From assembly GCA_050015175.1 (NCBI GenBank), contig JBEKBX010000002.1, positions 118,614-182,613 of the forward strand: DNA of 64,000 bases, in the 5' to 3' direction. This DNA is from Acidimicrobiales bacterium (lineage in GTDB: Bacteria > Actinomycetota > Acidimicrobiia > Acidimicrobiales > Bog-793). The translations under genes were made by a program, and so were the position numbers. Each line of letters opens with the position of its first letter. Within the stretch, counting starts at the first letter, position 1. The notes under the pieces were generated by a model that did no database searches, was not told where the DNA came from, and was given only the letters and a program-made list of their open reading frames with translations. This document shows positions 21,105-49,263 of the stretch, piece after piece.

Positions 21105-21242
21105 CAGACGTTCAGCTACCTGCTTCTGGTACGATACTCAGCCAGACGAGCACGCGCCAGAGTCGAGCGGCGCACCCAGAGCGTAGGCACTTGCAGGTGA
21201 TCCGAGCGCCCTTCTGTGCAGATGCGAGGAGAGGAGGCATCA

Positions 21243-22058
21243 GTGGAGAAGCTCGACATCCGCACGCCGTCGACCGCTCCCGCGGTCGTGACGGCGATTC
21301 GGGCTCTCGATGCCCTCACGAGCCTTCAGGGCTCCGCGACGCTCGACGAGCTCACTCGGGCGCTCGACGAGCCTCGAAGCTCGGTGCACCGGATTCTCAA
21401 CACTCTTGTCGAGAACGAGCTCCTGCAAAGGCAGGGGCAGCGAGGCGGCTACCGGATGGGGCCGAAGGTAATGAAGTGGGGCTCGACCTTCTTGCGGGCC
21501 GTCAACCTCATCGACGAGTTCCGTGTCGTCGCATCACCCATCGTGGCCCGCGTCAACGAGACGATGCAGCTGGCAGTCCTCGATTGGCCCGACGTCGTGT
21601 TCGTGGCGTACCTGGACTCGAAGCGCCCCGTCAGGCTTGCCACCTATGTCGGCCGCCGACTCCCGGCGCACGCAACAGCCGCGGGCAAAGTGCTGCTCGC
21701 GTTCTCCGGTACCTGCGTTGTCGACCGGTATCGCGACTACGAGATGCAGAAGCTGACACCGAGGACGGTGACGTCGGTTGAAGAGTTCGAGCGTCAGCTC
21801 ATGAGGGTTCGGCGTCGAGGCTGGGCCGAGGCGAGCCAGGAAGCCTCGGAGAACCTGACGTGTCTCGCCGCTCCGGTTCACGGCCACGATGGCCGGGTCG
21901 TGGCTGCGATGACTTTCTGTGTGCCAGAACCCTCGCTGAAACTGGCATGTCGACAGGAGCTCTCGCGTGAGCTCCTTGACGGGTGCAGCGAGCTGTCCCG
22001 CCAGATCGGCGCGGACGACCCTTGCCGTTCCTCCGCAGTGGCTCAAAGCCGCGCGTGA
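21243..22058 (+). CDS. IclR-family transcriptional regulator
   Basis: Winged HTH (LDELTRALDEPRSSVHRILNTLVENELLQR) plus an IclR effector domain. GTG 21243 behind GGAGAGGAGG is preferred over ATG 21216. Confidence 0.85.
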   Translation: MEKLDIRTPSTAPAVVTAIRALDALTSLQGSATLDELTRALDEPRSSVHRILNTLVENELLQRQGQRGGYRMGPKVMKWGSTFLRAVNLIDEFRVVASPIVARVNETMQLAVLDWPDVVFVAYLDSKRPVRLATYVGRRLPAHATAAGKVLLAFSGTCVVDRYRDYEMQKLTPRTVTSVEEFERQLMRVRRRGWAEASQEASENLTCLAAPVHGHDGRVVAAMTFCVPEPSLKLACRQELSRELLDGCSELSRQIGADDPCRSSAVAQSRA

Positions 22059-26267: not shown

Positions 26268-27695
26268 GTGAAGCGCTACCTGATCGGCATAGACAACGGG
26301 TCCCAGAGCACGAAGGTGTCTGTGTTCGACGAGCGTGGCACCGTGGTGTGCGAGGGGCGCCAGGCCCTCCGGCCAAATGACACGCCGCAGCCCGGCGTGG
26401 TGGAACACCCGGACGACGATCTCTGGTTCTCCATTGGCGAGGCGAGCCGCCAGGCCATGGCGGCGTTCCCGGGGGATGTCGCGGACATAGTCGGCGTGGG
26501 CCTGTGCACGATCCGTTTCTGCAGGGCGCTCCTCAAGGCCGACGGGACATTGGCCACTCCGGTGATGAGCTGGATGGACCGAAGAGTTTCCCGGCCCTAT
26601 GAGCACATCGACCCGAACGTGCGCTATGTGACGACGTCGTCGGGGTACATCAGCCACAGGATGACCGGTGAGTTCAAGGACACTGCCGCCAACTACGCGG
26701 GTGTGTGGCCGTTCAACGCGGACCGCTGGGAGTGGTTGCGCGACGACGAGGGCTTCTCGGACTACCAGGTGCCGCGCCAGATGCTCTTCGAGTTGCTGAT
26801 GCCGGGTGAGGTGCTGGGCTGCGTGACGCCCGAGGCGTCTCGTCACACCGGGATCCCGGCGGGGCTGCCAGTTGTCGCGACTTCCAACGACAAGGCCGTC
26901 GAGGCCCTCGGGTGCGGCCTGCGCTCGCCCGACACTCTCCTCGTCTCGTTGGGCACGTACACCGCGAGCATGACGACAGGAGAGCGCAACATACCGGACG
27001 CCAAGAGCTTCTGGTCCAATTTCGCCTCCATTCCGCATCAGTACCTGTACGAGAGCTACGGCATCCGCAGGGGCATGTGGACGGTCAGTTGGTGGCGGGA
27101 CCTGCTCGGCGAGGAGGCGAGGTCGGCAGCGGAGCGACAGGGACTGGGGGTCGAGCAGTATCTCGACCTCGAGGCAGAGAAGGTGCCACCCGGCTCGAAC
27201 GGCCTCATGGTGGTCCTCGACTGGCTCGCGCCGACGGAAGCCCCGTTCAAGAAAGGCTCGATCGTCGGCTTCGACGTCCGGCACGACCGGTTCCACATCT
27301 ACAGGGCCATACTCGAGGGAATCGCCCTGACGATCTACCGGTGTGGCACGGCGATGGGGGAAGAGACGGGGGAGATCTACAACCGGATAGTCGTCTCGGG
27401 CGGGGGATCGAACTCGGACGTGTTCATGCACATCTTCGCCGACGTCTTCGGGGTCCCGGCTGTTCGCAGCAAGATGAACAACGCCGCGGGGCTGGGCTCA
27501 GCGATCTGCGCCGCTGTCGGGCAGGGCGTTTACGGCTCGTGGGACGAAGCCATCGACAACATGGTGTCCTGGGAGCCGCCCTTCGCCCCGAACGCCAAGA
27601 ATCATGACCTGTACTTGCGGATGGCGGCTGTCTACGACGAGGTCCCGAGCCTCACGGACAAGATCTTCGAACGGTCCTACGAGATCTTCGGCTGA
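26268..27695 (+). CDS. FGGY-family carbohydrate kinase
   Basis: N-terminal YLIGIDNGSQSTKVSVFD plus FGGY N and C domains. GTG 26268 behind GGAGGCAGGA is preferred over TTG 26256. The 3-prime end overlaps the convergent ABC ATPase gene by 19 nt. Confidence 0.85.
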   Translation: MKRYLIGIDNGSQSTKVSVFDERGTVVCEGRQALRPNDTPQPGVVEHPDDDLWFSIGEASRQAMAAFPGDVADIVGVGLCTIRFCRALLKADGTLATPVMSWMDRRVSRPYEHIDPNVRYVTTSSGYISHRMTGEFKDTAANYAGVWPFNADRWEWLRDDEGFSDYQVPRQMLFELLMPGEVLGCVTPEASRHTGIPAGLPVVATSNDKAVEALGCGLRSPDTLLVSLGTYTASMTTGERNIPDAKSFWSNFASIPHQYLYESYGIRRGMWTVSWWRDLLGEEARSAAERQGLGVEQYLDLEAEKVPPGSNGLMVVLDWLAPTEAPFKKGSIVGFDVRHDRFHIYRAILEGIALTIYRCGTAMGEETGEIYNRIVVSGGGSNSDVFMHIFADVFGVPAVRSKMNNAAGLGSAICAAVGQGVYGSWDEAIDNMVSWEPPFAPNAKNHDLYLRMAAVYDEVPSLTDKIFERSYEIFG

Positions 27696-29761
27696 CCGGC
27701 TGTCTGGTCGGCGACCTCCGTTTGCGAGCTTCTCAGTTCGCCGATGGGGATGTGGCAACGCATCATGTGACCCGGCTCGACCTCGACGAGCGCGGGCTCG
27801 GTGGACTCGCACAACCCGTTCGCGAGGCGTCGCGGACAGCGCGTGTGGAACACGCACCCCGACGGCGAGTGCGCGGCGCTCGGGATCTCGCCCGTGAGCC
27901 GGATCCGCTCGCGGGACGTCCCGTCCAGGCTCGGCACCGCCGAGAGCAACGACTCGGTGTAAGGGTGATGGGGACCAGAGAAGACCGTCTCCGCCGACCC
28001 GTACTCCATCACGCGGCCCAGATAGAGCACCGCGATGCTGTCAGAGAGGTAGCGCACGACACCAAGATCGTGCGAGATGAAGACATAGGTGACTCGCTCA
28101 CGGCTTTGCAGGTCGGCGAGGAGATTGAGGATTGCCGCTTGCACAGAGACGTCGAGCGCCGAGGTCGGCTCGTCGCACACGAGGACCCGCGGAGACCCCG
28201 CGAAAGCGCGGGCGATGGCGACCCGTTGCTTGAGCCCCCCGGAGAGCTGGTAGGGGCGCAAGGGCAGGTGGCGCTCCTCCATGCGCACGGAGCGGACGAT
28301 CTCGAGAAGTCGTTGCTCGCACGCTTGGCCGGAGAGCCCGGCCAGCTTCTTGAGCGCCCTCGTGACGATGTGGCGCACGCTGTGGCGTCGGTTCAGCGCG
28401 GAGTCCGGGTTCTGGAAGATGATCTGCATCGCCTGCAACTGCTTGCGGTCGCGCTTGGTGCACTCGGGAGCGAGCGGCGAGCCTTCCAACTGGATGACGG
28501 ATCCCTCGTCGGGCACGCTCAGGCCGAGCAGCACGCGCGCGAGCGTCGTCTTGCCGGACCCCGACTCGCCGACGAGCCCGAGGGTCTCGCCTGGCTTGAG
28601 GTCGAGGTCGACACCCACGACGGCACGCACGTGCTCGCCGCGGACGTGGAACGTCTTCGACACGCCGCGCAAGCGGATCACCGGCTCTTCGCCCGGGTCG
28701 GGGATCTGCAGCTTGACGTCCTCCGGGGTTGCCCTGGGCAGCTCGGGCGCTCGTTCGTGGTAGTGACAGCGAGAGGTGCGTCCTGCGGCCACGTCGTACA
28801 TCGGCGGCGTCTCCTCGAGGCAACGCTGGTCCGCGATCGCACAACGCTTGGCGAAGATGCAGCCGACCTGGATCTCGCCCGGCCCGGGAAGGAAGCCCGG
28901 GATGGTGTCGAGGCGGCCGTGGTCCTTGCGCTGGCCGCGACGAGGCACGCAGCGCAGCAGCCCTACGGTGTAGGGGTGCCTGGGGTCGTCGAAGACCTCC
29001 CGTGCAGGACCCTGTTCTACGATCTCACCGGCGTACATGACCCCGACCCGGTCGCACATCTTCGCGATCACCGCGAGGTTGTGGCTGATGAAGAGCACTG
29101 AGGTCTGGAACTGTTGGCGCAGCGACGACACGAGGTCGAGGACCTCGGCCTCCACCGTGGCGTCGAGCGCGGTCGTGGGCTCGTCGAGTATGAGCAGCGA
29201 GGGCTCGGAGGCGAGCGCCATGGCGATCATGACTCGTTGCAGCATCCCGCCCGACAGCTGATGCGGGTAGGAGCGCAACACGCGCCCAGGATCCGCGATC
29301 TGCACGACGCGCAGCAGCTCCTCGGCGCGCGCCAAGGCTTCGGGCCTCCTTGTTCCGGCGATCTCGTACACCTCGGCCACCTGACGTCCCACCCGGAGCG
29401 ACGGGTTGAGGGCACGGCCGGGCTCTTGGTACACCATCGAGATCGTGCGAGCGCGGAACTTGCGCAGGGCGCGTTTGTCCATCTCGGAGGGGTCCTGCCC
29501 GTTGACCACGACCGTGCCCCCGCTGAGTCGACCGTTGCGCGGCAGGTAACGAGTGATGGCGAGGGCGGTGGTGGACTTGCCGCAGCCCGACTCGCCGACG
29601 AGCCCGAACGACTCCTGCCGTCCGATGCTGAACGAGACGTCGCGGAGAGCCAGTCGATCCTTGCCCCGCACTCGGTAGGCCACGTCGAGGTGGCTCACCT
29701 CGAGGGTCATGGGTGGTCTCTCCACCGTGGCGGCCTGGTCGGACGACGTTGTAAGGGTCAT
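27677..29761 (-). CDS. ABC transporter ATP-binding protein, fused double NBD (DppD-DppF type)
   Basis: Two Walker A sites ([18 protein letters not shown]) and two signatures ([16 protein letters not shown]). The ATG at 29761 overlaps the permease stop (ATGA); the ATG at 29710 is an alternative start. Confidence 0.9.
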
Positions 29762-30690
29762 TGGATCAGCACCGTCTCGATCGCGTCGCCGATGAGGTTT
29801 ATCGCGATGATGAGCGAAGCGATCGCGAGCGCCGGGAAGAGCGTCTCCCACCAGTAGCCGGCGGCGAGGTAATTGGAGTTGACGGCGATGTCGGCGCCCC
29901 AGTCCGGCGTGGGCAGCTGCACGCCGAAGCCGAGGAACGACAGCGTTGCGATCGTGAAGATGGCGTAGCCCAACCGGACGGTGAACTCAACGAGTATCGG
30001 GCCGAGCACGTTCGGGAGGATCTCGACGTACATGACGTGCAGGACGCTCTCGTCGCGTAACCGGGCCGCCGCGAGGTAGTCGAGCTCACGCTCCTGCAGG
30101 ACTGCGGTACGCACCGTCCTCGCGATGATCAGGGAGAAGACGAAGCCGATGACGACGATCAGAGTGAGCGTGCTGGGGCCGACTGCGACGACGAAGAGAA
30201 AGGCCACGATGACGATCGGAAGCGAAAGCGCCGCGTCCACGATCCTGCCGACGATCATGTCGAAGGCACCACGGAGGTAGCCCTGTGCAAGGCCGATCGT
30301 CGTTCCGACAACCGTGCCCAAGAGCGTGGCGAGAGGGGCGATCTCGAGGATGTCGCGGGCGCCGACGATCACACGGGACAACACGTCCTCGCCGACGTCG
30401 TTCGTCCCGAACCAGTGGGCGGCCGACGGCGCGAGCTGGGTGCTCAGAATGTTCGCCCCCGTCGCGTTGTAGGGAGCGAACGAGGGCCCGAAGATGGCGC
30501 AGACGATCCACCAGAGGAGGATGAGCGCGCCGATGATGAACGTCTTTGAGCGGACGAGCTGGTGAAGCTGCTCGCGGCGGACCTGCACGACGGACACATC
30601 GAGTGCGCCTGCGGCGCCGGCGGACGCGTCGGCCAGGGTTGCAGCCCCTCCGGCCACGGTAGGCGCGAGTGGGTCGATGGCCGCCGTCAT
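29758..30690 (-). CDS. ABC transporter permease (DppC-like)
   Basis: Track ORF trimmed to the ATG at 30690 (310 aa). It is polytopic with a BPD_transp_1-type layout. ATGA overlaps at both ends. Confidence 0.9.
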   Translation of the reverse strand: MTAAIDPLAPTVAGGAATLADASAGAAGALDVSVVQVRREQLHQLVRSKTFIIGALILLWWIVCAIFGPSFAPYNATGANILSTQLAPSAAHWFGTNDVGEDVLSRVIVGARDILEIAPLATLLGTVVGTTIGLAQGYLRGAFDMIVGRIVDAALSLPIVIVAFLFVVAVGPSTLTLIVVIGFVFSLIIARTVRTAVLQERELDYLAAARLRDESVLHVMYVEILPNVLGPILVEFTVRLGYAIFTIATLSFLGFGVQLPTPDWGADIAVNSNYLAAGYWWETLFPALAIASLIIAINLIGDAIETVLIQ

Positions 30691-31640
30691 TCCGCGTTCC
30701 CCAGCCTGATCCGCGGGTTCAACACCGTGTAGAGGATGTCGGCGATGAGCGTCGCGGCGAGGTAGACGATGCCGATGAAGAGAACTCCCGCTTCGAGAGT
30801 CGGGAAGTCCTTGTCGTTGGCGGCGTTGATGATCAAGGTGCCGATACCCGGGTAGACGAAGAGCTTCTCGACCACGACGAGCCCGCCGATGAGGTAACCG
30901 GTCTGTGTAGCGATGACCGTGATGGTTGGAAGCAACGAGTTGCGAAGCACGTGCCGCCGGATCACCACCCATCGGGGCAGCCCCTTCAAGGTGGCTGTGC
31001 GGACGTAATCGGAGTCGAGCGCCTCGATCGTGCCGGCCCGGGCCATTCGGGCTATGTAGCCGAAGAGGATGAACACGAGCGGGATGGCAGGCAGGATCAG
31101 GTACTTCAGCTGGACGAAGAACGACGAGCCGGGTGGAGCGTTGGCCGAGACCGGCAACAGCTTGAAGCCGAGGGCGAACACGACGATCAGAACGACGCCG
31201 GAGACGAACTCGGGCACCGTCGAGAGAGAGAGGCTCGTCGTGCTGATCAGACGGTCCACGAAGCTCCCTCGGTTGAGCGCCGCGATGATCCCGCCGAGGA
31301 TGCTGAGGGGTACGACTATGACGAAGGCGAAGGCCGCGAGCTTGAGGGAGCGACCGATGTACGGGAAGATGAAGGAGCTGACCGGTGCCTGTTGCTGGTA
31401 GGAGGTCCCGAGGTTGCCGTGCAGGATACCGGTGGCCCAGCTCCAGTACTGAACGAGGAGCGGCCGGTCGACTCCGAGCTTGTGGTCGAGCGTGATCACA
31501 GCCTGTTGCGAGGCGAAGGGTCCGAGGATGGCTCTGCCTGCGTTACCGGGGAGCACCTGACCGGCGAAGAAGATGATCATGCTCAAGAGCACGAGCGTGA
31601 TCAACGCCAAGCCGACACGCTTCAACACGTACAGCGGCAA
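30687..31640 (-). CDS. ABC transporter permease (DppB-like)
   Basis: 317 aa with a TTG start behind GGGAGGAGGG. The N-terminus MPLYVLKRVGLALITLVLLSMIIF is typical of DppB/OppB. Confidence 0.9.
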   Translation of the reverse strand: MPLYVLKRVGLALITLVLLSMIIFFAGQVLPGNAGRAILGPFASQQAVITLDHKLGVDRPLLVQYWSWATGILHGNLGTSYQQQAPVSSFIFPYIGRSLKLAAFAFVIVVPLSILGGIIAALNRGSFVDRLISTTSLSLSTVPEFVSGVVLIVVFALGFKLLPVSANAPPGSSFFVQLKYLILPAIPLVFILFGYIARMARAGTIEALDSDYVRTATLKGLPRWVVIRRHVLRNSLLPTITVIATQTGYLIGGLVVVEKLFVYPGIGTLIINAANDKDFPTLEAGVLFIGIVYLAATLIADILYTVLNPRIRLGNAE

Positions 31641-31702
31641 CTGTGCCCTCCTCCCGTATCACATCCCGGCCTGGGCCAACACGGTCAAGTCGAGACTGGA
31701 GG

Positions 31703-31717
31703 TTAACCGGAGGTTAA
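31703..31717. promoter_or_regulatory. TTAAC-N5-GTTAA palindrome (T-N11-A type) embedded in the direct repeat GGAGGTTAA-CC-GGAGGTTAA
   Basis: Perfect 5-bp inverted arms in an otherwise GC-rich divergent intergenic region (31641-31980). A third GGTTAAC lies at 31860-31866. Confidence 0.3.
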
Positions 31718-31980
31718 TCAGAGCCAGAAGCTAGCAGGGCAACCGTCTATTCGCCTTTCGCGTAGGGTTCAGCGCTTGTTGCCCGGTTTCGGGCGGCACG
31801 GATCGAAGGACAGGCCTGCGAATCCGAGGAGCCGAGTCTTGGGCGGCGAAGGCCTCGACGGTTAACATGGCGAGCCATGCGCGCGGCCCGACGTCGACAC
31901 GATGCCCGCGCTCACGCCAACCCCGGCGGCAGCTCAAGCACGCGTCGCCGAGAACGGCGGTCACCTCGGTTGGCCACGAG

Positions 31981-33354
31981 ATGCCCGCAGTAGACCTCTC
32001 CATCCTCGGGCGGGTCGTCAACGGCGTCAGCGCGCCGGTTCGCGGCGAGATCCGCGTTGCCGGGGGTCGCATCGTCGAGGTGCGCGAAGGCGAGCCTGCT
32101 TCCCTGTCGGCCACAAGGCTGATCGACGTCGGAACTGCCTATCTGCTCCCCGGCGGGATCGACTGCCACGTCCATTCGGGCAGCACCACGGCCGAGGGGA
32201 TCCGGGCTCTCACCGCGGCGGCGGCGGCCGGCGGCGTGACCACCGTGATCGACATGCCCTACGACGTGGCAGCACCGGTCGTGAGCCCGGAGATATTGGC
32301 CGCCAAACGCGCCAAGGTCCTGGCTGAAGCGCTTGTCGACGTGGCCCTCTTGGGCACGGTGCGCCCCGGGACCGGTGGCGTCGACGTCGGTCCGCTCGTC
32401 GAGGCCGGCGCGGTGGGCTTCAAACTCTCGCTGTTCGGCACTGACCCCCACCGGTTCCCGCGCATTCCAGACGACCAGTTCCTCGAAGTCCTCGCCGCGA
32501 TCCACGAGCACGGCAGCGTCGCGTGCGTGCACGCCGAGAACGAGGAGATAATCAAGCCCCTTCTGGCACGTGCCCGTGAATCGGGCGATGCCTCCCCGAT
32601 TGACCACTGCCGCTCGCGCCCGCCGGTGAGCGAGACCCAGGCGGTGCTGACGGCGCTCGAGTACGCCAGGGAGACAAAGGCTCCTCTCCACTTGTGCCAC
32701 CTGAGCCTCGCCCGCTCGGTGGACCTCGCCCGTTCGTATGCCGCAGAGGGCCTGCGGGTGAGCACGGAGACGTGCCCGCACTACCTGTGCTTCTCCGAGG
32801 ACGACATGGAGCGCCAACGTGGTCGCCTGAAGATAAACCCGCCCTTGCGCCCGGCCACCGAGGTGGCCCGGCTCTGGGAGCGTCTGTCGGGAGGGGGGAT
32901 CGACGTGGTTGCCTCGGACCATGCGCCCTGGCCACTGTCGGAAAAGACGCGACCGGCGATCTTCGACAATCACTCCGGGGCCCCGGGCACCGAGACACTT
33001 GTCACGGTGCTGGCTGCCGGGCTCCTCGACCGGGGCCAGGACCTCAACACGCTCCCGCACCTCGTTGCAGCGGCGCCCGCGCGTATCTTCGGGATCTCGC
33101 ACGTGAAAGGCTCTCTCATGCCCGGCATGGACGCCGACATCATGGCCTTCGACCCGGGCAGGCCATTCACCCTCGATGAGCGCCAACTGCACTCGAACGC
33201 GGGCTGGAGCCCTTATCACGGGATGGCTTTTCCCGGGCGGGTCATCCTAACGGTCTCGCGTGGAGAGGTGGTCTGGGACGGGTCGCAGCTCCACGGATCG
33301 CCGGGTCGCGGCCGTGTCGTGGAGCGTCCCCGGGGGGCACCACAAGGTGGCTGA
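31981..33354 (+). CDS. Cyclic amidohydrolase (hydantoinase/allantoinase/dihydroorotase family); candidate hydantoin-5-propionate hydrolase
   Basis: Trimmed to the ATG at 31981 (457 aa). It has LLPGGIDCHVH, GFKLSLFG, VHAENEE and VASDHAPW. Confidence 0.85.
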   Translation: MPAVDLSILGRVVNGVSAPVRGEIRVAGGRIVEVREGEPASLSATRLIDVGTAYLLPGGIDCHVHSGSTTAEGIRALTAAAAAGGVTTVIDMPYDVAAPVVSPEILAAKRAKVLAEALVDVALLGTVRPGTGGVDVGPLVEAGAVGFKLSLFGTDPHRFPRIPDDQFLEVLAAIHEHGSVACVHAENEEIIKPLLARARESGDASPIDHCRSRPPVSETQAVLTALEYARETKAPLHLCHLSLARSVDLARSYAAEGLRVSTETCPHYLCFSEDDMERQRGRLKINPPLRPATEVARLWERLSGGGIDVVASDHAPWPLSEKTRPAIFDNHSGAPGTETLVTVLAAGLLDRGQDLNTLPHLVAAAPARIFGISHVKGSLMPGMDADIMAFDPGRPFTLDERQLHSNAGWSPYHGMAFPGRVILTVSRGEVVWDGSQLHGSPGRGRVVERPRGAPQGG

Positions 33355-35005
33355 TCCGGACAGGCCCGCCGAGGTCACAGCTCAGCGCGGCCCTCTGCTC
33401 CGCTGCCGGGGGTGGCGCCAGGAGGGGCTTCTCCGGATGCTCGAGAACGTGCTGGAGATCGGCGAGCGTCCCGAAGACCTGGTCGTCTACGCGGCGCGTG
33501 GCAAGGCAGCCCGGGACTGGGAGTCGTACTCGAGGATCGTTCTGTCGCTCAAACGCCTCGGCGAGGACGAGACGCTCGTGGTGCAGTCCGGAAAGCCAGT
33601 CGCCGTCTTCCCCAGTTCGCCTGACGCCCCTCTCGTCGTGATGGCCTGCGGCAACGTGGTCGGCCACTACGCGACCGCGGAGTACTTCGACGAGTTGTGC
33701 GACCGCGGCCTCATCATGTGGGGCGGCCTGACTGCCGGAGACTGGCAGTACATCGGTTTCCAGGGCGTTCTCCAGGGCGTCTACGAACTCCTGCAGGCAG
33801 TTGCGAGGGACCATTTCGGCGGTTCGCTCGCCGGGAGGTTCGTCCTCACGGCCGGCCTCGGTGGCATGGGATCGGCGCAACCTCTCGCCATCTCGTTGGC
33901 GGGGGGCACTGGCATCGTGGTCGAGGTCGACCCGGACAAGTGCGCCCGCGCCCAGGCCCGCGGTCACCTCGCGTCGGTGACCGACGATGTGGAAGAGGCG
34001 CTCGCGTTTGCCGGCGACAGGGATGCGGGCAGGGTCATCGGACTCGTCGGCAACGCGGCGTCCGTCTACGAGGAGCTTTGCGACAGCGGCGTCGTGCCCG
34101 ACGTCGTCACCGACCTCACGGCCGCGCACGACGCGGTCTTCGGTTACTGCCCGGTCGACTACTCGCTCGAGGAGTGGAAAGCCGTTCGCGAGCTGGACCC
34201 GGCAGCCGTCGCAGACAGGGCGCGTCGTTCCATGGCCCTCCAGGTCCGGGCGATGCTGAAACTGAAGGCGCGCGGTGCCGTCGTTTTCGAGGACGGCAAC
34301 AACCTGCGCGTGCAGGCCGCCGCCGCCGGAGTCAGTGAAGCCTTCGAGATCGACGGGTTCGCGGAGAGGTACCTGAGGCCGCTGTTCTGCCGGGGAATCG
34401 GGCCGTTCCGCTGGTTGGCCCTGAGCGGTGAGCCCTCCGACCTCGCCGAGCTCGACAGCCTCGTGTGCGAGATGTCCTTCCGTCCCGAGGTGGAGTCCTG
34501 GATCTCACTCGCCCGGGAACACGTGGCGATGCAGGGACTGCCGGCACGGAGCTGCTGGCTCGGCCACGGGGAGCGTTCCAGGTTCGCCGTGGCCGTGAAC
34601 GGGCTTGTCCGGGACGGGCGGCTCGGCGGGCCGGTCGCCTTCACCCGGGACCACTTCGACTCGGGCGGGATGACCCATCCGCACATCGGGACCGAGGCGA
34701 TGGCGGACGGGTCGGATGCCATCTCCGACTGGCCGATACTCGACGCCCTCTTGTTAGCGGCCTCGGGCGCCGATCTCGTCGCAGTACACGCCGGAGGTGC
34801 AGGTTACGCGGGCTACATACAGTCGGCTGGCGTCACGATCGTCGCCGACGGCAGCGCGGGGGCGGGCGAGCGCCTCCGTCGCGGGCTCGACGCCGACAGC
34901 GGGCTCGGCGTTTTGCGCTATGCGGACGCCGGGTACGCCGATGCAGTGTCTGTGGCCGGCAGCGCCGGCCTCGGGCTCGGCCTTGAGCGGGAGGAGAAGA
35001 GATGA
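33347..35005 (+). CDS. Divergent urocanase-family hydratase; candidate thiourocanate hydratase
   Basis: GTG 33347 overlaps the upstream stop (GTGGCTGA). It is collinear with HutU (VQSGKPVAVF, GLGGMGSAQP, PLFCRGIGPFRW, GLPARSCWLG). It is altered at several blocks that are conserved in the canonical copy at 49264. Confidence 0.85.
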   Translation: MADPDRPAEVTAQRGPLLRCRGWRQEGLLRMLENVLEIGERPEDLVVYAARGKAARDWESYSRIVLSLKRLGEDETLVVQSGKPVAVFPSSPDAPLVVMACGNVVGHYATAEYFDELCDRGLIMWGGLTAGDWQYIGFQGVLQGVYELLQAVARDHFGGSLAGRFVLTAGLGGMGSAQPLAISLAGGTGIVVEVDPDKCARAQARGHLASVTDDVEEALAFAGDRDAGRVIGLVGNAASVYEELCDSGVVPDVVTDLTAAHDAVFGYCPVDYSLEEWKAVRELDPAAVADRARRSMALQVRAMLKLKARGAVVFEDGNNLRVQAAAAGVSEAFEIDGFAERYLRPLFCRGIGPFRWLALSGEPSDLAELDSLVCEMSFRPEVESWISLAREHVAMQGLPARSCWLGHGERSRFAVAVNGLVRDGRLGGPVAFTRDHFDSGGMTHPHIGTEAMADGSDAISDWPILDALLLAASGADLVAVHAGGAGYAGYIQSAGVTIVADGSAGAGERLRRGLDADSGLGVLRYADAGYADAVSVAGSAGLGLGLEREEKR

Positions 35006-36087
35006 CACGAGAGCTGACCGGAGACGACGCCCTCAACGCCGTGTGGGGCGGGTCGCTGCTGGCTTGCGGCGGAGGAGGATGGGTCGACCACGGCATGATG
35101 ATGGGCGAGCTCGCCACGCGGGTCGGCCGCCCTGTCCTCTGCTCGCCCGATGAGATAGCCGACTCTGATCTCGTCGTCACGGTCACCGCCATTGGCGCGC
35201 CGGCGTCGCCGAGCAGAGAGATCCGCCCGCTCGACTACGTGCGGGCGCTGCAGCTGGTGGCAGGTGAGACGGACCGCCCGGTCGTGGCAGTGATGACGGC
35301 CCAGAACGGCTCGTCGACAACGCTGAACGGCTGGATCCAGTCCGCCGTCCTCGGCGTGCGGGTGCTTGACGCCGCGGGAGACGTACGGGCGCATCCGACC
35401 GGCAAGCTCGGCGCGATGGGCCTTACCACCCGAGCCGGCTACGAGACCGTGCAGGCAGTCGCCGGCGGGAACCGTGAACTGAGCGGCGGCCTCGAGGTGG
35501 TCGTTCGTGGCCAGGTGATTGCGACCTCCGACGTCTTGCGCGATGTGTGCGTGCGCGCCGGCGGCTTCATCGCCGCGGCCCGTCATCCCGTGGAGGCGTC
35601 CTACGTGAAGCAACATGCCGCCCTCGGCGCCATCAGCTACGCCTTGTCGCTCGGGTCGGCCATGCGTGCCGCGCCTGACGCCGCGGCCGTCATCGACGCG
35701 GCGATCGCCGCGACCGGCGGAAGGGTCGTCGCAAGCGGTCCCGTCCGCGAGGTCGACCCGCTCCGGACCGCGGGCGGCTTCGACCACGGTTCGTTGTCGA
35801 TCGGCGGGTACGTCGTGCGATACCTGAACGAGTACATGACCGTGGACCTCGAGGGCTTGCGCGTCGCCACCTACCCCGACGTCATCGCCACCTTGTCGCT
35901 CGAGGACGGGCGGCCGATCTCAATTGCCGAGATGACCGAGGGCCGCGAGGCGGCGCTGTTCGTCGTTGACCAGTCCCTGTTGCCGCTCTCCTCCAGCACA
36001 CGCGACCGGTTCGCGCTCGAGGAGGTCGAGAAGATCATGGGTATCTCGCTGATCGGGCACGGGGTGCCCGCGACTCGGCCGTCGTGA
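35002..36087 (+). CDS. DUF917-family protein; candidate thiohydantoin desulfurase
   Basis: 361 aa with ATGA overlap to the upstream gene. N-terminal LNAVWGGSLLACGGGGW plus a two-domain DUF917-like layout. The family call is from memory. Confidence 0.75.
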   Translation: MTRELTGDDALNAVWGGSLLACGGGGWVDHGMMMGELATRVGRPVLCSPDEIADSDLVVTVTAIGAPASPSREIRPLDYVRALQLVAGETDRPVVAVMTAQNGSSTTLNGWIQSAVLGVRVLDAAGDVRAHPTGKLGAMGLTTRAGYETVQAVAGGNRELSGGLEVVVRGQVIATSDVLRDVCVRAGGFIAAARHPVEASYVKQHAALGAISYALSLGSAMRAAPDAAAVIDAAIAATGGRVVASGPVREVDPLRTAGGFDHGSLSIGGYVVRYLNEYMTVDLEGLRVATYPDVIATLSLEDGRPISIAEMTEGREAALFVVDQSLLPLSSSTRDRFALEEVEKIMGISLIGHGVPATRPS

Positions 36088-37355
36088 GCCGACTGCCGTC
36101 GCCTCACCTCGGGCGAGTCTCGGACGACTTCGAGACCCTCGCATCATACCGGGACCCGGAGGCCCCGGGCTGGACGCGTCGTGTCTTCTCCGGCTTCGAC
36201 AGTGCCGGGAGAGCCTGGGTCGCCGGGAGGATGGAGGAGGCGGGCCTGACAGTCGAGACCGACGCGGCGGCCAACCTCATCGGGAGATTGCCCGGCACCG
36301 CTTCGTTGCCCGGCGCGATCGTGACCGGTTCGCACACCGACACCGTGCACGGAGGGGGCCGTTTCGACGGCATCGTCGGGGTGCTCGGCGCCCTCGAGGC
36401 GGTCCGCTGCCTGCGCGAGGCACGGACCGAGCTCGAGCACGACCTCATCGTGGTCGACTTTCTCGGTGAGGAGCCGAACGACTTCGGCTTGAGCTGCGTG
36501 GGAAGCCGCGCGATATCCGGCGCGCTCGACGAGGGTCACCTCGCTCTTGTGGGCCCGGAGGGGCTCAGTCTCGCCGAGGCGCTCGCGGCCTGCGGCGGGC
36601 GACCGTCCGCGCTCGAAGGCGCGCGCTGGCCGAACGGCCTGCACTGCTACGTCGAGCTGCACATAGAGCAGGGCCCGGTGCTCGAAGCCGCACGGGGCCC
36701 GATAGGAGTGGTGACAGGCATCGTCGGCATCCACCGGCTCCTTGCGAGCATCGTCGGGCAGCCGGATCATGCCGGCACAACCCCGATGAGCCTCCGCCGG
36801 GATGCGCTCCTGGGAGCGGCAGAGGCTGCGCTCGCCATAGAGAGGCTCGCCGAGGGAGGTGTGGCGACGACGGGCCGTCTCGAGATCCGGCCCGGCGCCC
36901 ACAACGTGGTACCCGGAGAGGCCGACCTGTGGGCCGAGGCGCGAAGTGCCGACGAGGAATGGCTGGACGACTTCGGGCGCAGGGTCACCGAAGAGATCAG
37001 TGCCATCGGCGCCCGGCGGCACCTCGGCACGACCCTCAGCTGGATCTCGCGCGAGCGTCCAGTGACGGTCACGGACTGGGTGGCGGCCGCCATCGGGGAG
37101 GCGGCACGGTCTTTCGGGATCGAGCCCCTCAACATTCCGAGCGGCGCCGGTCACGACGCGTCCCACATGGCGCGTCTTGGTCCGATGGGCATGGTTTTCG
37201 TGCCGTCCCGGGCCGGGCGGAGCCACTGCCCGGAGGAGTGGACGGACCTGGAGGATATCGGTCGTGGCATCGCCGTCCTAGCGGAGACGTTGGTAATTTG
37301 TGATCACCGAGAGGAGGCGCGCCAGGGGAGGCGGCGCCGCGGGTCAGATGACTGA
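36084..37355 (+). CDS. M20-family N-carbamoyl-L-amino-acid / allantoate amidohydrolase
   Basis: 423 aa with GTGA overlap to the upstream gene. It has TGSHTDTVHGGGRFDGIVGV, ELHIEQGPVLE, PDHAGTTPM and SGAGHDA. Confidence 0.85.
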   Translation: MSRLPSPHLGRVSDDFETLASYRDPEAPGWTRRVFSGFDSAGRAWVAGRMEEAGLTVETDAAANLIGRLPGTASLPGAIVTGSHTDTVHGGGRFDGIVGVLGALEAVRCLREARTELEHDLIVVDFLGEEPNDFGLSCVGSRAISGALDEGHLALVGPEGLSLAEALAACGGRPSALEGARWPNGLHCYVELHIEQGPVLEAARGPIGVVTGIVGIHRLLASIVGQPDHAGTTPMSLRRDALLGAAEAALAIERLAEGGVATTGRLEIRPGAHNVVPGEADLWAEARSADEEWLDDFGRRVTEEISAIGARRHLGTTLSWISRERPVTVTDWVAAAIGEAARSFGIEPLNIPSGAGHDASHMARLGPMGMVFVPSRAGRSHCPEEWTDLEDIGRGIAVLAETLVICDHREEARQGRRRRGSDD

Positions 37356-38931
37356 GCGACTTGTCGAGCTGACCGGAGACGACCTGAGCGTGCAGGATGT
37401 CGTCGCGGTTGCACGCGGTCGGACCCGGGTCGCTCTTTCCGCCGAAGCGCTCCGGCGGATGCGCCAGGCTCGCGATGTCGTCGACGCGATACTCGCGAGC
37501 GGCGAGCCGGTGTACGGCCTCAATACCGGGCTCGGCTCGTTCGCCCGTTTCCGGATTCCGATCGAGCAGATCAAGCGCTTCTCGTTTGACACCGTGGCCG
37601 ACCTGAGCTCGTCCTACGGCCGGCCGCTGCCCGCTGACGTCGTGCGGGCGATGATGGTGGCCCGGGCGAACGGCATGGCCAAAGCCGGCGTCGGCGTGAG
37701 GTGTGAGCTGGCGCAACTGCTCGTCGAGCTCTTGAACCGGGACGTCGATCCGGTGGTGAGGGAGATCGGCTCGGTCGGCCAGGGCGACCTGTCGGAGATG
37801 TCCGACATCGGCAAGGTGCTGATCGGCATCGGGCACGCCGAGGTCGGCGGCGAGGTGATGAGCGGGCGGGCGGCATTGGCACGAGTCGGGCTGGAGCCGA
37901 TCGAGCTCGCCCCGAAGGAGGCGCTCGCGCTGATCAGCGCCAACGGAGTCACCCTCGGACGGGGCGCCCTCGTGCTGCACGACGTCGCGGACCTCGTCGA
38001 CCTGCTGCAGGCGGCGGCCGCATTGTCGCTCGAGGGCTTCGCAGGCAATCTCTCGATCATCCATCCCGGCACGAGCGAGCTCCAGCCTCAGGTCGGGCCC
38101 AGTACGGCCGCCGACCGGCTGCGCCACATGCTCGAGGGCTCCTACCTGTGGGAACCGGGCGCGGCGCGCAACCTGCAAGATCCGCTTTCGTTCCGCTGCG
38201 TGCCCCGCAGCCACGGTGCGCTCTACGACGCTCTCCACTACTCGCGCTTCAACCTCGAGAGCGAGTTGAACGCGGCCAATGACAATCCGCTCGTGCTCGT
38301 CGGCGAGGGAGTGATCGTCTCGGGCGGCAGCTTCGACGTGGTGGGGCTCGCCATGGCCTTCGACCTGTTGCGCCTCGCCATAGCGAACGCCGTCAAGGGC
38401 ACCAACGAGCGCGTGCAGAAGCTGCTGTGGAACCACTTCAGCGGCCTGCCGAGCGCGCTTGCCTTCGACCAGGGACCCACCAACGGCCTCAAGCCGATGG
38501 GCCGCTGGTGTGCGGCGCTCGCAGCCGAGGCGCGCTCGCTCGCCGGACCCGTGACACTCGACTACGCAGGGCAGGTAGCCGAGGGTGTCGAGGACGACGC
38601 CAGCATGGCCCCGCTCTCGGTGCGCCGGACCCACGAGCTCGTCTCGCTCGTCCACCGCACTGTGGTCTACGAGCTCATAGTGGCCGCCCAGGCGGTCGAC
38701 ATGCGGGAGCGGTGGCCAATTGGGCGCGGGACCACCGTCGTGTACCGGGCCGTGCGCGACCACGTGCCGATGCTGCGCGACGTCCGTGGTTGGGACCCGG
38801 ACATCGAGGGTCTCGTCGAAGCCGTCGCCCAGGGCGAGCTCGGCGCCCGGATAGCCGCCGCGATCGGCGGACGTAAGCAGGAGCCGCGAGTACTGATGGG
38901 GGTGCGCACACCGGACGCGCCCGAGCACTAG
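37348..38931 (+). CDS. HAL/PAL-family ammonia-lyase homologue lacking the MIO-forming Ala-Ser-Gly; candidate ergothionase-type betaine lyase
   Basis: ATG 37348 overlaps the upstream stop (ATGACTGA). It has YGLNTGLGSFA, NDNPLV and QDPLSFRC. The MIO position reads GSVGQGDLSEM instead of GSVGASGDLAPL. Confidence 0.85.
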   Translation: MTERLVELTGDDLSVQDVVAVARGRTRVALSAEALRRMRQARDVVDAILASGEPVYGLNTGLGSFARFRIPIEQIKRFSFDTVADLSSSYGRPLPADVVRAMMVARANGMAKAGVGVRCELAQLLVELLNRDVDPVVREIGSVGQGDLSEMSDIGKVLIGIGHAEVGGEVMSGRAALARVGLEPIELAPKEALALISANGVTLGRGALVLHDVADLVDLLQAAAALSLEGFAGNLSIIHPGTSELQPQVGPSTAADRLRHMLEGSYLWEPGAARNLQDPLSFRCVPRSHGALYDALHYSRFNLESELNAANDNPLVLVGEGVIVSGGSFDVVGLAMAFDLLRLAIANAVKGTNERVQKLLWNHFSGLPSALAFDQGPTNGLKPMGRWCAALAAEARSLAGPVTLDYAGQVAEGVEDDASMAPLSVRRTHELVSLVHRTVVYELIVAAQAVDMRERWPIGRGTTVVYRAVRDHVPMLRDVRGWDPDIEGLVEAVAQGELGARIAAAIGGRKQEPRVLMGVRTPDAPEH

Positions 38932-39004
38932 GGCGCGAGAGAAGGAGGCTCCGGGGCCCCCTTACTCGGGGTCCGCTAGCACCGGGTCGTGGCCGCTCCG
39001 GGCT

Positions 39005-40279
39005 TCAGGTATGCCCGATCTGGACGCCCGGCTCCGGCACCCGGACGTGAAAGGCGAGCCAGCCGATCGCCAGCCCGGTGCCCAGTACGACTTGAGCAAT
39101 GGCGAAGGTCGCGCGCGCACCGAGCGGACCGACGACGGCACCGGCGAGAAGCGGGCTGACGACCGTCGAAAAGGCCCACACGAGGTTGAGCATGCCCATC
39201 ACGACACCGAGTCCCACTCCGGCTCGGTTGGCCCCGGAGGCACCGAGTGGGTACCCGACAGACCACAGGACGGACCGGGCCGCAGCCGTCGCACAGAGCA
39301 TCACGACGACGAAAAGTGGCGCCGCGCTCGCGGTCGCGGGCGACATCACGAGTGCGAGAACGACGCCTGCGCCGAGGATGGTCCGCAGACGCACAGCGCG
39401 CAGACCAGCTCTCTTGGTAACCGCGCTGCCGAGGATGAACACCGCCGCGGCGGCCGAGAACACGATTCCGATCGAGCCCTCGGAGGCGCCGGACTCGTGC
39501 AGCTCGAGTGGCCCGAGCAACGTCACGAGAGCCGCCGAAGCACCGGCAATGCTCACAGCCATCGTCGCTCCCAGGATCCTGAGATCGGATGCAGCCGTGC
39601 GGATGCTGGAGACGACGCCCGTGTGCTCCAACGGGCAGGTGCCTTCAAGGTCGATCGAGGTCAACATCACCGTCACCACGACCATCAGGACGGTGGCGAC
39701 GACGAAAGGTGCCGCGAGACCGAAGTACTGGGCGACGAACCCGGCGAAGGCCGGTCCCGCGATGGAACCGAACCCCGATGCCGTGACGGTTCCGGCGAGT
39801 GACGAATCGTCGCCCGAGGCCCTCGCCAGCCACGTGAGCGCCGCCGTCCACACGATGCCGTAGCCGAGGCCGAAAACGAGGCGGGAAGCGAGCAGCAATG
39901 CGTACGAGGGGGCGAAGGCCTGGCCGAGGGTTGCGAGCACGATGAGCCAACCGGACCACAAGGTCAGCACGCGTGCTCCGAAGTGATCGGAGAGGGCACC
40001 GGCCGGCAGCGAGATGACGAGTGCCGCGACGCCGGTCGCGGCGAGCAACCCTGCCGTTTCCACGCCACCCAGCTGGAAGCGGTGAGCGTAGGAGGGCAAC
40101 AGCGGCGCGATCGCGGACTGGAGCAGCGAGCTGAGTAGGGCGAGGGCGTAGACGAGGCGACGCAGACGGCGAATCCTCGGATCGATCACCCCTGTCTCGT
40201 CAAGTACCGGCGGCCCGGCCGGGTGGCGGTGCCTCCTGGTCATCTGTCGTTGTCCCGCAATGTTCAGGGCCGCCACCAC
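39005..40279 (-). CDS. MFS transporter
   Basis: 424 aa with about 12 predicted TM segments and the MFS loop motif GALSDHFGAR. The start may be the ATG at 40243. Confidence 0.85.
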   Translation of the reverse strand: MVAALNIAGQRQMTRRHRHPAGPPVLDETGVIDPRIRRLRRLVYALALLSSLLQSAIAPLLPSYAHRFQLGGVETAGLLAATGVAALVISLPAGALSDHFGARVLTLWSGWLIVLATLGQAFAPSYALLLASRLVFGLGYGIVWTAALTWLARASGDDSSLAGTVTASGFGSIAGPAFAGFVAQYFGLAAPFVVATVLMVVVTVMLTSIDLEGTCPLEHTGVVSSIRTAASDLRILGATMAVSIAGASAALVTLLGPLELHESGASEGSIGIVFSAAAAVFILGSAVTKRAGLRAVRLRTILGAGVVLALVMSPATASAAPLFVVVMLCATAAARSVLWSVGYPLGASGANRAGVGLGVVMGMLNLVWAFSTVVSPLLAGAVVGPLGARATFAIAQVVLGTGLAIGWLAFHVRVPEPGVQIGHT

Positions 40280-40356
40280 TTACCTATCGGAAGCTGGACA
40301 CTTCATCCTTATATTCATTTTACGACAAGATTGTTCGCAGATAACCTGAATCATTA

Positions 40357-41286
40357 GTGCCAGAACGATCGATTTGGTCGATTGATAAAAGAGTCGACCT
40401 GCGCGAGCTGAGAGCGCTCATCGCCATCGCCGACCTCGGCTCGTTCCGCCGTGCTGCCTCAGAGCTCGGATACACGCAATCGTCGATCTCGCACCAGATC
40501 GCTTCGCTGGAAACTGTGCTCGGCACAGAACTGTTCACCCGGCCTGGGGGCCGTGGTGCGGTGAAGCTCACCGCGAGCGGTGCGGCCGCCTACAGAAGGG
40601 CTCGACGTGCCCTCGGGGAGGTGGAGGCCATCGGTGCCGATGTCGACTCGGCCCGGCGCGGCGAGCGGGCACGGATCCGCGTGGGCGTGTCGCAGACAGC
40701 TGCTGCCGAGCTGATGCCGGTTGCGCTCAGATCGTTTCGCGAGACCCATCCCGACATTGAGGTGGTCCTGAGCGAGGTCGAGGAGATCCAGGCCATCATG
40801 AGCGGGCTGGGGCGCGGACGGTTCGACTTGGCATTCGCCCTCAACCCCGAGCCTGATGAGCGGGCCGAGGCCATTCCACTCCTGGAGGACCCGTGGGTCA
40901 TCCTCACCCGCCGCGACAGCGAGATCGGCGACGTGGAGCACCTCAGTTTCGACCTCATCGACGGAATGGACCTGGTCGCCTGGACTCGCCGCTGGAACAG
41001 CCAGATCGAGCTGGAGGAAGCGTGGCGCCGGCGCGGCATCGCACCGCGCATCGTCTATCGGACCGACGACAACCTTGCCCTCCAGCGCCTCGTCGCCGCC
41101 GGCCTCGGGCACGCTTGCATCGGCCGGCTCGCCGCTCGGCGGGCCATAGACCCGTCACTCACATGGCTCGCTCCGCGCGAACGCCTCACGACGCGCCAGA
41201 TCGCGTTGTGCTACCCGCGGCACCGGGAGATCACCGGCGCCGTGTCCGCGCTGATCTCAGCGATTCGGGCCCACCCGACCGGCTGA
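40357..41286 (+). CDS. LysR-family transcriptional regulator
   Basis: 309 aa with a GTG start, the HTH LRALIAIADLGSFRRAASELGYTQSSISHQIASLE, and a LysR substrate-binding domain. It is divergent from the MFS gene across a 77-nt AT-rich spacer. Confidence 0.9.
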   Translation: MPERSIWSIDKRVDLRELRALIAIADLGSFRRAASELGYTQSSISHQIASLETVLGTELFTRPGGRGAVKLTASGAAAYRRARRALGEVEAIGADVDSARRGERARIRVGVSQTAAAELMPVALRSFRETHPDIEVVLSEVEEIQAIMSGLGRGRFDLAFALNPEPDERAEAIPLLEDPWVILTRRDSEIGDVEHLSFDLIDGMDLVAWTRRWNSQIELEEAWRRRGIAPRIVYRTDDNLALQRLVAAGLGHACIGRLAARRAIDPSLTWLAPRERLTTRQIALCYPRHREITGAVSALISAIRAHPTG

Positions 41287-43087: not shown

Positions 43088-43445
43088 TCGTCTACTTCCT
43101 AAGAGGACCTCGGACCGAGAACGGCGGCGTGGCGACTCTCCAAATCACCCCGCGTCAGTGAAGCACAGCATCATTCTGCCCTGTCGGGCAAGACGTGCTC
43201 GCAATGGTCCGGCTCGTTGCCGGCTCCAGCGGGTGCGGGGCTTCTTGCCCGGCCGGGAGGCGGGCTATGGGCGTTCAGATCCGTGACGCTAGAGTGAAAC
43301 CGACGTCGCGCTACACGACCCCGAGGAGCCTGTTGGTACCTGCTCAAGAGTGATCGAGCGTGCGGGCCATATCGCTTCGACGCCTTCTGGGCGCGGGCCG
43401 CTGGTTCAACACCGAAGTCGATGGTTACCGAAAAGGAGATCTGAC

Positions 43446-45741: not shown

Positions 45742-46015
45742 CCGTCTCCTCGACGTCGTCCGTCCAGATGATCTGCCCGACACGGCGACGACCCAACGCC
45801 GCCTCTTTCTCTCGTGCCAAGATGGGATTGTGACCAGGAGAACCACCGCATGAGCCCTGACAACGGGCTCATCCGCGGAGTTGCGCGGCGCCACACAGCG
45901 CTCCGGGCTGCCCGGCGACGGGGTCATCGACGAAGGACCGCGGTTCCTCGCAGTCGACGAGGACGCCCGCCTTGTTTCGCCGCTGTCGGGGTAGCGGCGC
46001 GTTCTGGAGGTCCGA

Positions 46016-47464: not shown

Positions 47465-47822
47465 CTCGAGCGATGCGACGGAAGAGACAGTTTCGAGAAG
47501 CCTGGGTTGGGCGAGCCGGTTCGTAGGTACAGGCCGTTCCCTTGGAGCCAAACAGCGGCAAAGGTATTCAGTGCTTCGTCACGCCCTGAGTGCCTGCGTT
47601 TGCTTGTGGTCGCGGCCACGATCTGATACAACGAACTCAGCACGCGTGAATTCGTTGGAATCAGTCATATAGCGGCGAAGGTTCCTCGTTCCCAGTAGAG
47701 GTGAGGTGCAGGGGACGCGCCGGACCTTTGACTCCTCACCGGGTGTGGGCACGCGGGCGAAAAGTTGCTTGTCACCGTCTTGCCTATCCGCGTCCAGCGT
47801 CGACGACAGGAGGCGGTGTGTA

Positions 47823-49259: not shown

Positions 49260-49263
49260 CGCG

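Follow-up and report, generated by a model that had tools for sequence, protein, structure and literature searches.

We analysed a 64,000-nucleotide window (positions 118,614 to 182,613 of contig JBEKBX010000002.1, assembly GCA_050015175.1) from an Acidimicrobiales bacterium of the Bog-793 lineage, with a GC content of ~67 %. The window contains two genes of the urocanase family. One encodes a divergent protein and is the second gene of a five-gene operon on the forward strand (~31981–38931); the other encodes a canonical urocanate hydratase (HutU). From its sequence and its surroundings, the divergent gene is likely to encode a thiourocanate hydratase that operates within a complete five-enzyme operon for ergothioneine catabolism. 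The genes of the operon and the canonical copy used for comparison are as follows.

31867–33354, forward strand: ErtD-like cyclic amidohydrolase, predicted hydantoin-5-propionate amidohydrolase (Pfam Amidohydro_1; likely true start at the ATG at 31981)
33347–35005, forward strand: divergent urocanase-family gene, predicted thiourocanate hydratase (ErtB-like; GTG start, 552 amino acids)
35002–36087, forward strand: DUF917/S-Me-THD-family protein, predicted thiohydantoin desulfurase (ErtC-like; Pfam S-Me-THD_N and S-Me-THD_C; ATGA overlap with the hydratase gene)
36084–37355, forward strand: M20 amidohydrolase, N-carbamoyl-L-glutamate amidohydrolase ErtE (Pfam Peptidase_M20; GTGA overlap with the upstream gene)
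37348–38931, forward strand: aromatic-amino-acid-lyase family protein without the 4-methylideneimidazole-5-one (MIO) cofactor triad, predicted ergothionase (ergothioneine trimethylammonia-lyase; Pfam Lyase_aromatic; the ATG overlaps the ErtE stop codon)
49264–50943, forward strand: canonical HutU, comparison copy, outside the predicted ergothioneine operon (559 amino acids)

The open reading frame of the divergent copy spans 33260–35005 on the forward strand, and we took the GTG at 33347 as its start; the resulting 552-residue protein is identical to a database protein (P0001) from an Acidimicrobiales metagenome-assembled genome (MAG), and a homologue, P0003, shares 87 % identity with it. It displays the three Pfam urocanase domains Urocanase_N (PF17391), Urocanase (PF01175) and Urocanase_C (PF17392) in that order, scoring 142.5, 218.7 and 229.4 bits against gathering cutoffs of ~23. 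The canonical copy likewise has all three domains, and with E-values of 8e-42 to 1e-93 across both copies, their membership of the urocanase family is not a chance result. The two proteins are 47.4 % identical, and the hutU model TIGR01228 scores 902 bits for the canonical copy and 651 bits for the divergent one. The best PDB match of the canonical copy is 1X87 (831 bits), and it shares 60–67 % identity with the solved HutUs; the divergent copy shares 46–50 % with them, and at 77 alignment columns where five reference HutUs and the canonical copy of the window all agree it has a different residue. A first-pass annotation, made from the sequence alone, had described one canonical and one divergent gene, as is confirmed here, and all eleven peptide blocks it quoted were found verbatim in the translations of the two copies. 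Those of the divergent copy are VYAARGKAARDW, LTAGDWQYIGFQG, TDLTAAHDAV, TRDHFDSGGMTHPHIGTE, VHAGGAGYAGY and GLGGMGSAQP, the last being the glycine-rich segment that it had correctly described as kept. The canonical HutU belongs to ordinary histidine catabolism, whose genes HutI, FtcD and HutU are scattered over the same window, and the two paralogues would serve parallel, non-redundant pathways.

The four successive junctions of the operon overlap by 4–8 nucleotides, at GTGGCTGA, ATGA, GTGA and ATGACTGA in that order; at the GTGGCTGA junction the GTG start of the hydratase gene overlaps the stop codon of the preceding ErtD-like gene, and at the ATGACTGA junction the ATG of the lyase gene overlaps with the stop codon of ErtE. 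Because all junctions overlap, we regard the five genes as a translationally coupled operon. A promoter and terminator scan of 31400–40500 gave results at chance level. For each of the four neighbours of the hydratase gene, the top match among curated models or solved structures is an enzyme of the ergothioneine pathway. For the ErtD-like protein, the two NCBIfam ErtD models score best (421 and 413 bits, with cutoffs of 600 and 650), ahead of allantoinase (321 bits). The DUF917 protein reaches 385 of the 440 bits required by the thiohydantoin desulfurase model, compared with 265 bits on the model for S-methyl thiohydantoin desulfurase, and a sequence search with it against the PDB returned no matches. 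ErtE passes its NCBIfam model, NF058540 (530 bits, cutoff 520). NCBIfam holds no ergothionase model on which to score the lyase, whose best PDB match is the ergothionase of T. denticola (6S7J, 1.5e-69). The five predicted activities of the operon are those of the known bacterial pathway for ergothioneine catabolism.

Of the three urocanase-family models in NCBIfam, the divergent copy scores best on that for thiourocanate hydratase (NF058530, 748 bits), followed by S-methyl thiourocanate hydratase (NF058531, 701 bits, cutoff 880) and hutU (TIGR01228, 651 bits). It misses the NF058530 cutoff of 930 bits and passes the hutU equivalog cutoff of 375 bits, although the latter is non-discriminating, as verified thiourocanate and S-methyl thiourocanate hydratases pass it too. 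The best PDB match of the divergent copy is 7NED (648 bits, 56 % identity). As the PDB labels both 7NED and the related entry 8Q9U merely ‘urocanate hydratase’, we re-scored both on NCBIfam, which identifies the former as a thiourocanate hydratase (1008 bits for a cutoff of 930) and the latter as an S-methyl thiourocanate hydratase (970 bits for a cutoff of 880). On NF058530, other members of the clade to which the divergent copy belongs score 735–789 bits, all under its cutoff. Three proteobacterial or Lactococcus hydratases of the 7NED clade pass it with 977–1027 bits, as do two of their DUF917 partners on their own model (585–587 bits). Every homologue that bears a source name is called ‘urocanate hydratase’, plausibly because all these proteins clear the hutU cutoff.

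A scan of species-representative genomes yielded 80 loci, and a neighbour-joining tree was built from 91 proteins with 200 bootstraps. The HutU clade (100 %) comprises 48 sequences, including the canonical copy of the window and four solved HutUs, and excludes the divergent copy. The latter falls in a clade of 28 sequences (100 %) that splits in two, an Acidimicrobiia/Actinomycetota type and a Chloroflexota/Dormibacterota type, each again supported at 100 %. 7NED and 12 proteobacterial and Lactococcus proteins form a further clade (100 %), to which the divergent clade is sister with 73 % bootstrap, and all thio-type sequences, including 8Q9U and an Acidimicrobiaceae homologue (L041), group together at 100 %. 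A position inside ordinary HutU clades, which would have spoken against the first-pass annotation, is not what the tree shows.

Residues are numbered here as in P. putida urocanase. Glu44, Tyr52, Thr133, Arg362, Cys411 and Asp443, reportedly identified as catalytic or substrate-binding residues by Kessler et al. in J Mol Biol in 2004, are invariant across the divergent clade and the canonical copy (Glu40, Tyr48, Thr129, Arg355, Cys403 and Asp435 in the divergent copy), and so is the GLGGMG NAD loop. Because these residues and the loop are invariant, NAD-dependent hydration chemistry is probably retained in the divergent copy, as the earlier annotation had also supposed. Elsewhere, the divergent clade is fixed for another residue at 41 positions where conservation among the 48 HutUs is 90 % or higher. 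At 18 of the 41, most of which are invariant in HutU, the switch is to the residue of thiourocanate hydratases, and the divergent copy has all 18: N37V, a two-residue deletion at 39–40, A43G, G53A, Y129W, Q131G, M132L, I138Q, I145V, I440F, V450M, R455I, W485L, V494G, G495Y, H501S and H533Y. The HutU-invariant residues Gly53, Gln131, Met132, Ile138, Val450, Arg455, Val494, Gly495, His501 and His533 are thus all replaced. Arg455, a mutagenesis target in P. putida urocanase (1W1U compared with 1UWL), is lost in all three thio-type groups, where Ile, Ile and Ala are found. The earlier proposal that substrate recognition had changed, for instance towards thiourocanate, gains support from these 18 switches, the operon context, the tree and the best curated model.

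A further ten changes are private to the divergent clade (W112Y, F153L, R202K, Q264L, S266A, D322E, P343D, I373L, I410S and L445F), private meaning that the position is at least 90 % conserved in HutU and that its HutU residue is also retained by 80 % or more of the thiourocanate hydratases. At position 456, HutU has Glu, thiourocanate hydratases have Met and the divergent clade has Gly. Q264L and S266A fall in the TDQTSAHD motif, which becomes TDLTAAHD, and I410S adjoins Cys411; all of the other 63 sequences examined have Gln264. In the divergent copy, positions 264, 266, 410, 445, 455 and 456 are residues 257, 259, 402, 437, 447 and 448. The peptide blocks quoted in the first-pass annotation are accordingly of two kinds: VYAA, WQYIG, MTHP and GYAGY are traits of thiourocanate hydratases, whereas TDLTAAHD and DHF occur as private changes of the divergent clade. 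An AlphaFold2 model of the divergent copy from a 23-sequence alignment was poor (mean predicted local distance difference test score, pLDDT, 62.9; predicted template modelling score 0.47), with pLDDT below 50 at residues 1–58, 98–140, 338–352 and 435–495, the segments that contain the substituted motifs.

The lyase of the operon does not have the Ala-Ser-Gly triad from which MIO forms, reading GSVGQ-GDL where histidine ammonia-lyase (HAL) has GSVGASGDL and ergothionase SSIGE-GDI, so that the leaving group would be expected to be trimethylammonium. It keeps the catalytic Tyr54 (VYGLN), and with 359 bits it does not reach the hutH cutoff of 539. At the position of Lys384 in the T. denticola ergothionase, the window lyase has Arg, within a KPMGRW motif, and Arg is also found in all 17 same-type lyases in the related loci. 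Lys384 is reportedly an essential ligand of the substrate thiolate, and lyases for sulfur-free betaines have a neutral residue at this position, Asn in Swoo_3913 or Gln in SO_3299 (bioRxiv 10.1101/2025.08.13.670108, 10.64898/2026.04.22.720169). Our own loci provided internal controls: lyases adjoining HutU genes have the MIO triad (GASGD) with Val or Tyr at the 384 position, and in Lactococcus nasutitermitis (L038), where the neighbouring gene encodes a bona fide thiourocanate hydratase, the lyase is MIO-less and has Lys. The cationic residue of the window lyase is compatible with a thiolate substrate, with the match to ergothionase remaining inexact: the two proteins belong to the same MIO-less branch of the aromatic amino acid lyase family and conserve Tyr54, but share ~30 % identity and differ at the former MIO site (Gln-Gly instead of Glu-Gly) and in the Arg that replaces Lys384.

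Other lyases were seen among the related loci. Clusters of the Chloroflexota/Dormibacterota type (L003, L004, L019–L024 and L027) mostly have two MIO-less lyases, both with GAS-D, with His at the 384 position in one and Tyr in the other. In an Actinomycetota relative (L001, 12072–16757; also L002), three tandem PF00221 lyase genes follow the cluster, of which the second and third (484 and 506 amino acids) are highly divergent, do not have the usual YGLN catalytic-Tyr loop, and might process the methylamine or betaine moiety.

We compared the gene neighbourhoods by searching the window proteins against all loci with tblastn, with loci classed by the identity of their hydratase. Wherever the contig extends, all 29 loci at 67 % or above have at least one of the ErtD-like, DUF917 and M20 genes in the order of the window, and most have all three together with a lyase. 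These loci come from MAGs of Acidimicrobiales, Actinomycetes, Chloroflexota and Dormibacterota. At 53–56 %, a DUF917 homologue lies beside the hydratase in 13 of 13 loci, and ten of these have the full order ErtD, ErtE, DUF917, hydratase. None of the 44 HutU-type loci, at 50–54 %, had an ErtD-like, DUF917 or M20 neighbour by tblastn, and several had a MIO-containing HAL instead. Three homologues that were looked up independently have the same gene arrangement.

Some of these loci have features of their own. In the Chloroflexota/Dormibacterota-type clusters an IclR gene sits between the amidohydrolase and the hydratase, and L003 and L004 have an extra amidohydrolase and a pyridine-nucleotide-disulfide oxidoreductase downstream. 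The near-identical clusters of L019 and L021, which are of this type and from the same SMAG data set, are binned as ‘Candidatus Nitrosopolaris’, an archaeon, and ‘Candidatus Sulfotelmatobacter’, assignments that are likely due to mis-binning. In L001 (1–6563; also L002), genes for a SoxBDAG-like heterotetrameric oxidase and for formyltetrahydrofolate synthetase (FTHFS) precede the cluster. The Acidimicrobiaceae MAG locus L041 (5312–10834) has an S-methyl-type cluster, with 792 bits for the hydratase on the S-methyl model (cutoff 880), its best, and 294 bits for the DUF917 partner on S-methyl thiohydantoin desulfurase (cutoff 450), likewise its best. With both proteins sub-threshold, L041 is by these scores a second under-annotated lineage.

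Set beside the known systems, the divergent hydratase resembles thiourocanate hydratase (ErtB, NF058530, 7NED) in its three-domain urocanase fold family, NAD loop and catalytic residues, in its departures from HutU (VYAA, WQYIG, MTHP, R455I and GGxGYAGY among them), and in its linkage to homologues of thiohydantoin desulfurase, ErtD and ErtE. It differs in its separate clade, its private changes, Gly456 in place of Met456, and a partner lyase with Arg and not Lys384. The gene order differs as well, being ErtD, hydratase, desulfurase, ErtE, lyase in the window and ErtD, ErtE, desulfurase, hydratase in the proteobacterial loci. With HutU (EC 4.2.1.49, TIGR01228, P. putida 1UWK/1UWL) it shares the superfamily, the domain order and, presumably, hydration with NAD+ as electrophile, but it lies outside the HutU clade, is changed at the 41 conserved positions, and has no hut context, its neighbours being the ErtD-like, DUF917, ErtE and MIO-less lyase genes. 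With S-methyl thiourocanate hydratase (NF058531, 8Q9U/8Q9V) it shares the wider thio-type clade, I138Q, Q131G, the loss of Arg455, W485L, H501S, H533Y and a DUF917 partner; identity is 49 %, and both the loop deletion and the TDQCM-VD and YMNA motifs of that enzyme are missing, the DUF917 partner being of the non-methyl type.

A bacterial pathway for ergothioneine catabolism was reportedly described by Beliaeva, Leisinger and Seebeck in ACS Chem Biol (16:397) in 2021. The order of steps given here follows the published pathway and the names of the NCBIfam models, and the assignment of genes to steps is our own. Ergothioneine would be taken up, possibly via the adjacent Opp-type ABC system or a major facilitator superfamily (MFS) protein, and the MIO-less lyase would convert it to thiourocanate and trimethylamine. 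The urocanase-like enzyme, with a tightly bound NAD+ as electrophile as in urocanase, would then add water to give 3-(5-oxo-2-thioxoimidazolidin-4-yl)propionate, from which the DUF917 enzyme would release the sulfur as H2S, leaving hydantoin-5-propionate. Ring opening by the ErtD-like amidohydrolase would yield N-carbamoyl-glutamate, which ErtE would break down to glutamate, NH3 and CO2. The sequences, their family membership, the structure of the operon, its synteny, the phylogeny and the signature residues are direct observations; the substrate, the products, the role of the transporter and the regulation are all inferred.

Several observations weigh against assigning the 33347 gene to ergothioneine catabolism as a thiourocanate hydratase. 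Its identity to 7NED is only 56 %, the sister placement to the characterised clade carries only 73 % bootstrap, and all 29 related loci come from MAGs. The hydratase (748 of 930 bits), the desulfurase (385 of 440) and the ErtD-like protein (421 of 600) are below the cutoffs of their NCBIfam equivalogs, and the lyase has Arg and not the Lys384 that is reported as essential for ergothionase activity. The ten private changes and E456G could also reflect a shifted specificity. A distinct specificity class, acting on another chalcogen-bearing or modified urocanate (for example, selenourocanate from selenoneine) or on another histidine-betaine product, would fit a clade that is monophyletic at 100 % and stands apart from the characterised one, that carries Gly456 and private changes such as Q264L, S266A, I410S and L445F, whose scored operon enzymes save ErtE fall short of their equivalog cutoffs, and whose lyases have Arg for Lys384, or His in the second subclade. 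We nevertheless consider such a class unlikely. The same five enzyme types are present with the same pathway logic, the DUF917 partner clearly resembles thiohydantoin desulfurase more than its S-methyl counterpart, the lyase still has a cationic side chain at the position that binds the thiolate, and the 18 signature residues are common to thiourocanate hydratases; the divergence itself could be mere phylogenetic distance between Actinomycetota and Chloroflexota on the one hand and Proteobacteria and Firmicutes on the other.

An S-methyl thiourocanate hydratase of S-methyl-ergothioneine catabolism, of the 8Q9U type, is suggested by an NF058531 score just 47 bits below that for thiourocanate hydratase, by WQYIG and the loss of Arg455 in common with 8Q9U, and by the name of the neighbour's Pfam family, S-Me-THD. 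That score of 701 bits is under the cutoff of 880, however, and the divergent copy has neither the four-residue deletion of 8Q9U in the GGxGxxG(Y/S) loop nor its TDQCM-VD and YMNA motifs. Both 8Q9U and L041 lie outside the clade formed by the divergent family and the thiourocanate hydratases, the DUF917 partner prefers the non-methyl model (385 against 265 bits), and the genuinely S-methyl-like Acidimicrobiaceae cluster L041 looks unlike that of the window, all of which makes this identity very improbable. We give scarcely any credence to a second urocanase (HutU2), redundant or specialised, that would for instance hydrate urocanate made from hercynine by the MIO-less lyase. It would account for the passing hutU score (651 against a cutoff of 375 bits), for the name ‘urocanate hydratase’ on all named homologues and for a window in which no HutH is found, and MIO-less lyases that make urocanate from hercynine exist. 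Yet the tree sets the divergent copy apart from the HutU clade with 100 % bootstrap, and residues that all 48 HutUs have in common (Arg455, Gln131, Gly53, Val494 and Gly495 among them) are replaced in it. Its constant neighbour is a desulfurase homologue, for which a pathway free of sulfur would have no use. For the later steps, a hydantoinase and a carbamoylase take the place of HutI and HutG or FtcD, a canonical HutU, HutI and FtcD are encoded in the window as well, and the lyase is cationic where hercynine lyases have Asn or Gln. A thiourocanate hydratase in an ergothioneine operon is the reading that we retain.

Three further possibilities were considered and rejected: a pseudogene or inactive paralogue, given the invariant catalytic residues and the conservation of the clade in several phyla; a recent horizontal acquisition, as the GC content of 0.69–0.70 matches the rest of the window; and an N-methylurocanate hydratase, on context, as an obligate desulfurase partner and a MIO-less lyase with a cationic residue at 384 favour a thio-betaine.

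The operon is flanked by transport and regulatory genes, and the remaining genes of histidine catabolism lie further away.

39005–40279, reverse strand: MFS transporter, convergent with the operon (Pfam MFS_1)
40357–41286, forward strand: LysR-family regulator, candidate pathway regulator (Pfam HTH_1, LysR_substrate)
30687–31640 (OppB), 29758–30972 (OppC) and 27677–29851 (fused OppDF ATPase), reverse strand: Opp/Dpp-type ATP-binding cassette (ABC) importer, divergent from the operon (Pfam BPD_transp_1, OppC_N, two ABC_tran, oligo_HPY)
19328–21049, reverse strand: SBP_bac_5 solute-binding protein (Pfam SBP_bac_5)
21216–22058, forward strand: IclR regulator, divergent from and paired with the SBP_bac_5 gene
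46016–47464: FtcD
9483–10664: HutI, 40 kb from the canonical hutU

The Opp genes adjoin the cluster in the closest Acidimicrobiales loci (12 loci, OppB 83–95 % identical), and in the second subclade OppB and OppC homologues also do so, with OppB at ~60 % identity. The importer may be an uptake system for ergothioneine, unrelated to the known EgtUV transporter. The SBP_bac_5 protein is 41 % identical to a solute-binding protein directly beside the cluster in L004, and we tentatively regard it as the binding component of the importer, from which it lies 6.6 kb apart. The intervening block contains genes for an alcohol dehydrogenase, a short-chain dehydrogenase/reductase, a FAD oxidase and an FGGY kinase. 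The MFS gene accompanies the operon in Acidimicrobiales relatives and is found in the same relative position, with 71–85 % identity, in L006, L009–L013, L022, L028 and L081; the LysR gene is syntenic in 11 Acidimicrobiales loci (69–93 % identity).

The widespread sulfur antioxidant ergothioneine is produced by fungi and actinobacteria, and its turnover in soil and peat is, to our knowledge, poorly mapped. The pathway, the enzyme family and the curated models were already known, and no new kind of chemistry is proposed here. The novelty lies in a sister clade, well supported and represented by MAGs alone, that is sub-threshold and labelled urocanase wherever it is named, together with its invariant substitutions, different gene order, Arg-type lyase and linked Opp-type importer. 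If the assignment is right, the five-step pathway would extend to abundant uncultured Acidimicrobiia, Chloroflexota and Dormibacterota, many of them bog or peat MAGs. The clade clears the permissive hutU threshold and fails the strict one for thiourocanate hydratase, a systematic annotation gap that is plausibly why all members with a source name are called ‘urocanate hydratase’ and why metagenome surveys miss the pathway. The 18 shared and 10 private switches offer a set of residues for studies of specificity, and the Opp-type importer is a candidate for an uptake route unlike EgtUV. Were the clade a distinct specificity class after all, the private changes and the Lys384-to-Arg lyase would be the marks of a pathway that serves some histidine-betaine distinct from ergothioneine.

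The neighbourhood of the canonical hutU (43350–53862) is unusual, comprising in order FTHFS, FtcD, an NCS1-family permease, HutU, AcnX subunits and a nickel-pincer isomerase. The AcnX large and swivel subunits are cis-3-hydroxy-L-proline-dehydratase-like (231 bits, cutoff 700), and the LarA-like nickel-pincer isomerase belongs to group 22. No MIO-containing HutH was found within the window. Two fusion genes lie elsewhere in the window: at 12441–14567 on the reverse strand, MoeA (molybdopterin molybdenumtransferase) is fused to a PBP_like domain, and at 15501–17648 on the forward strand, a chorismate-binding, PabB-like enzyme is fused to a class IV, PabC-like aminotransferase.

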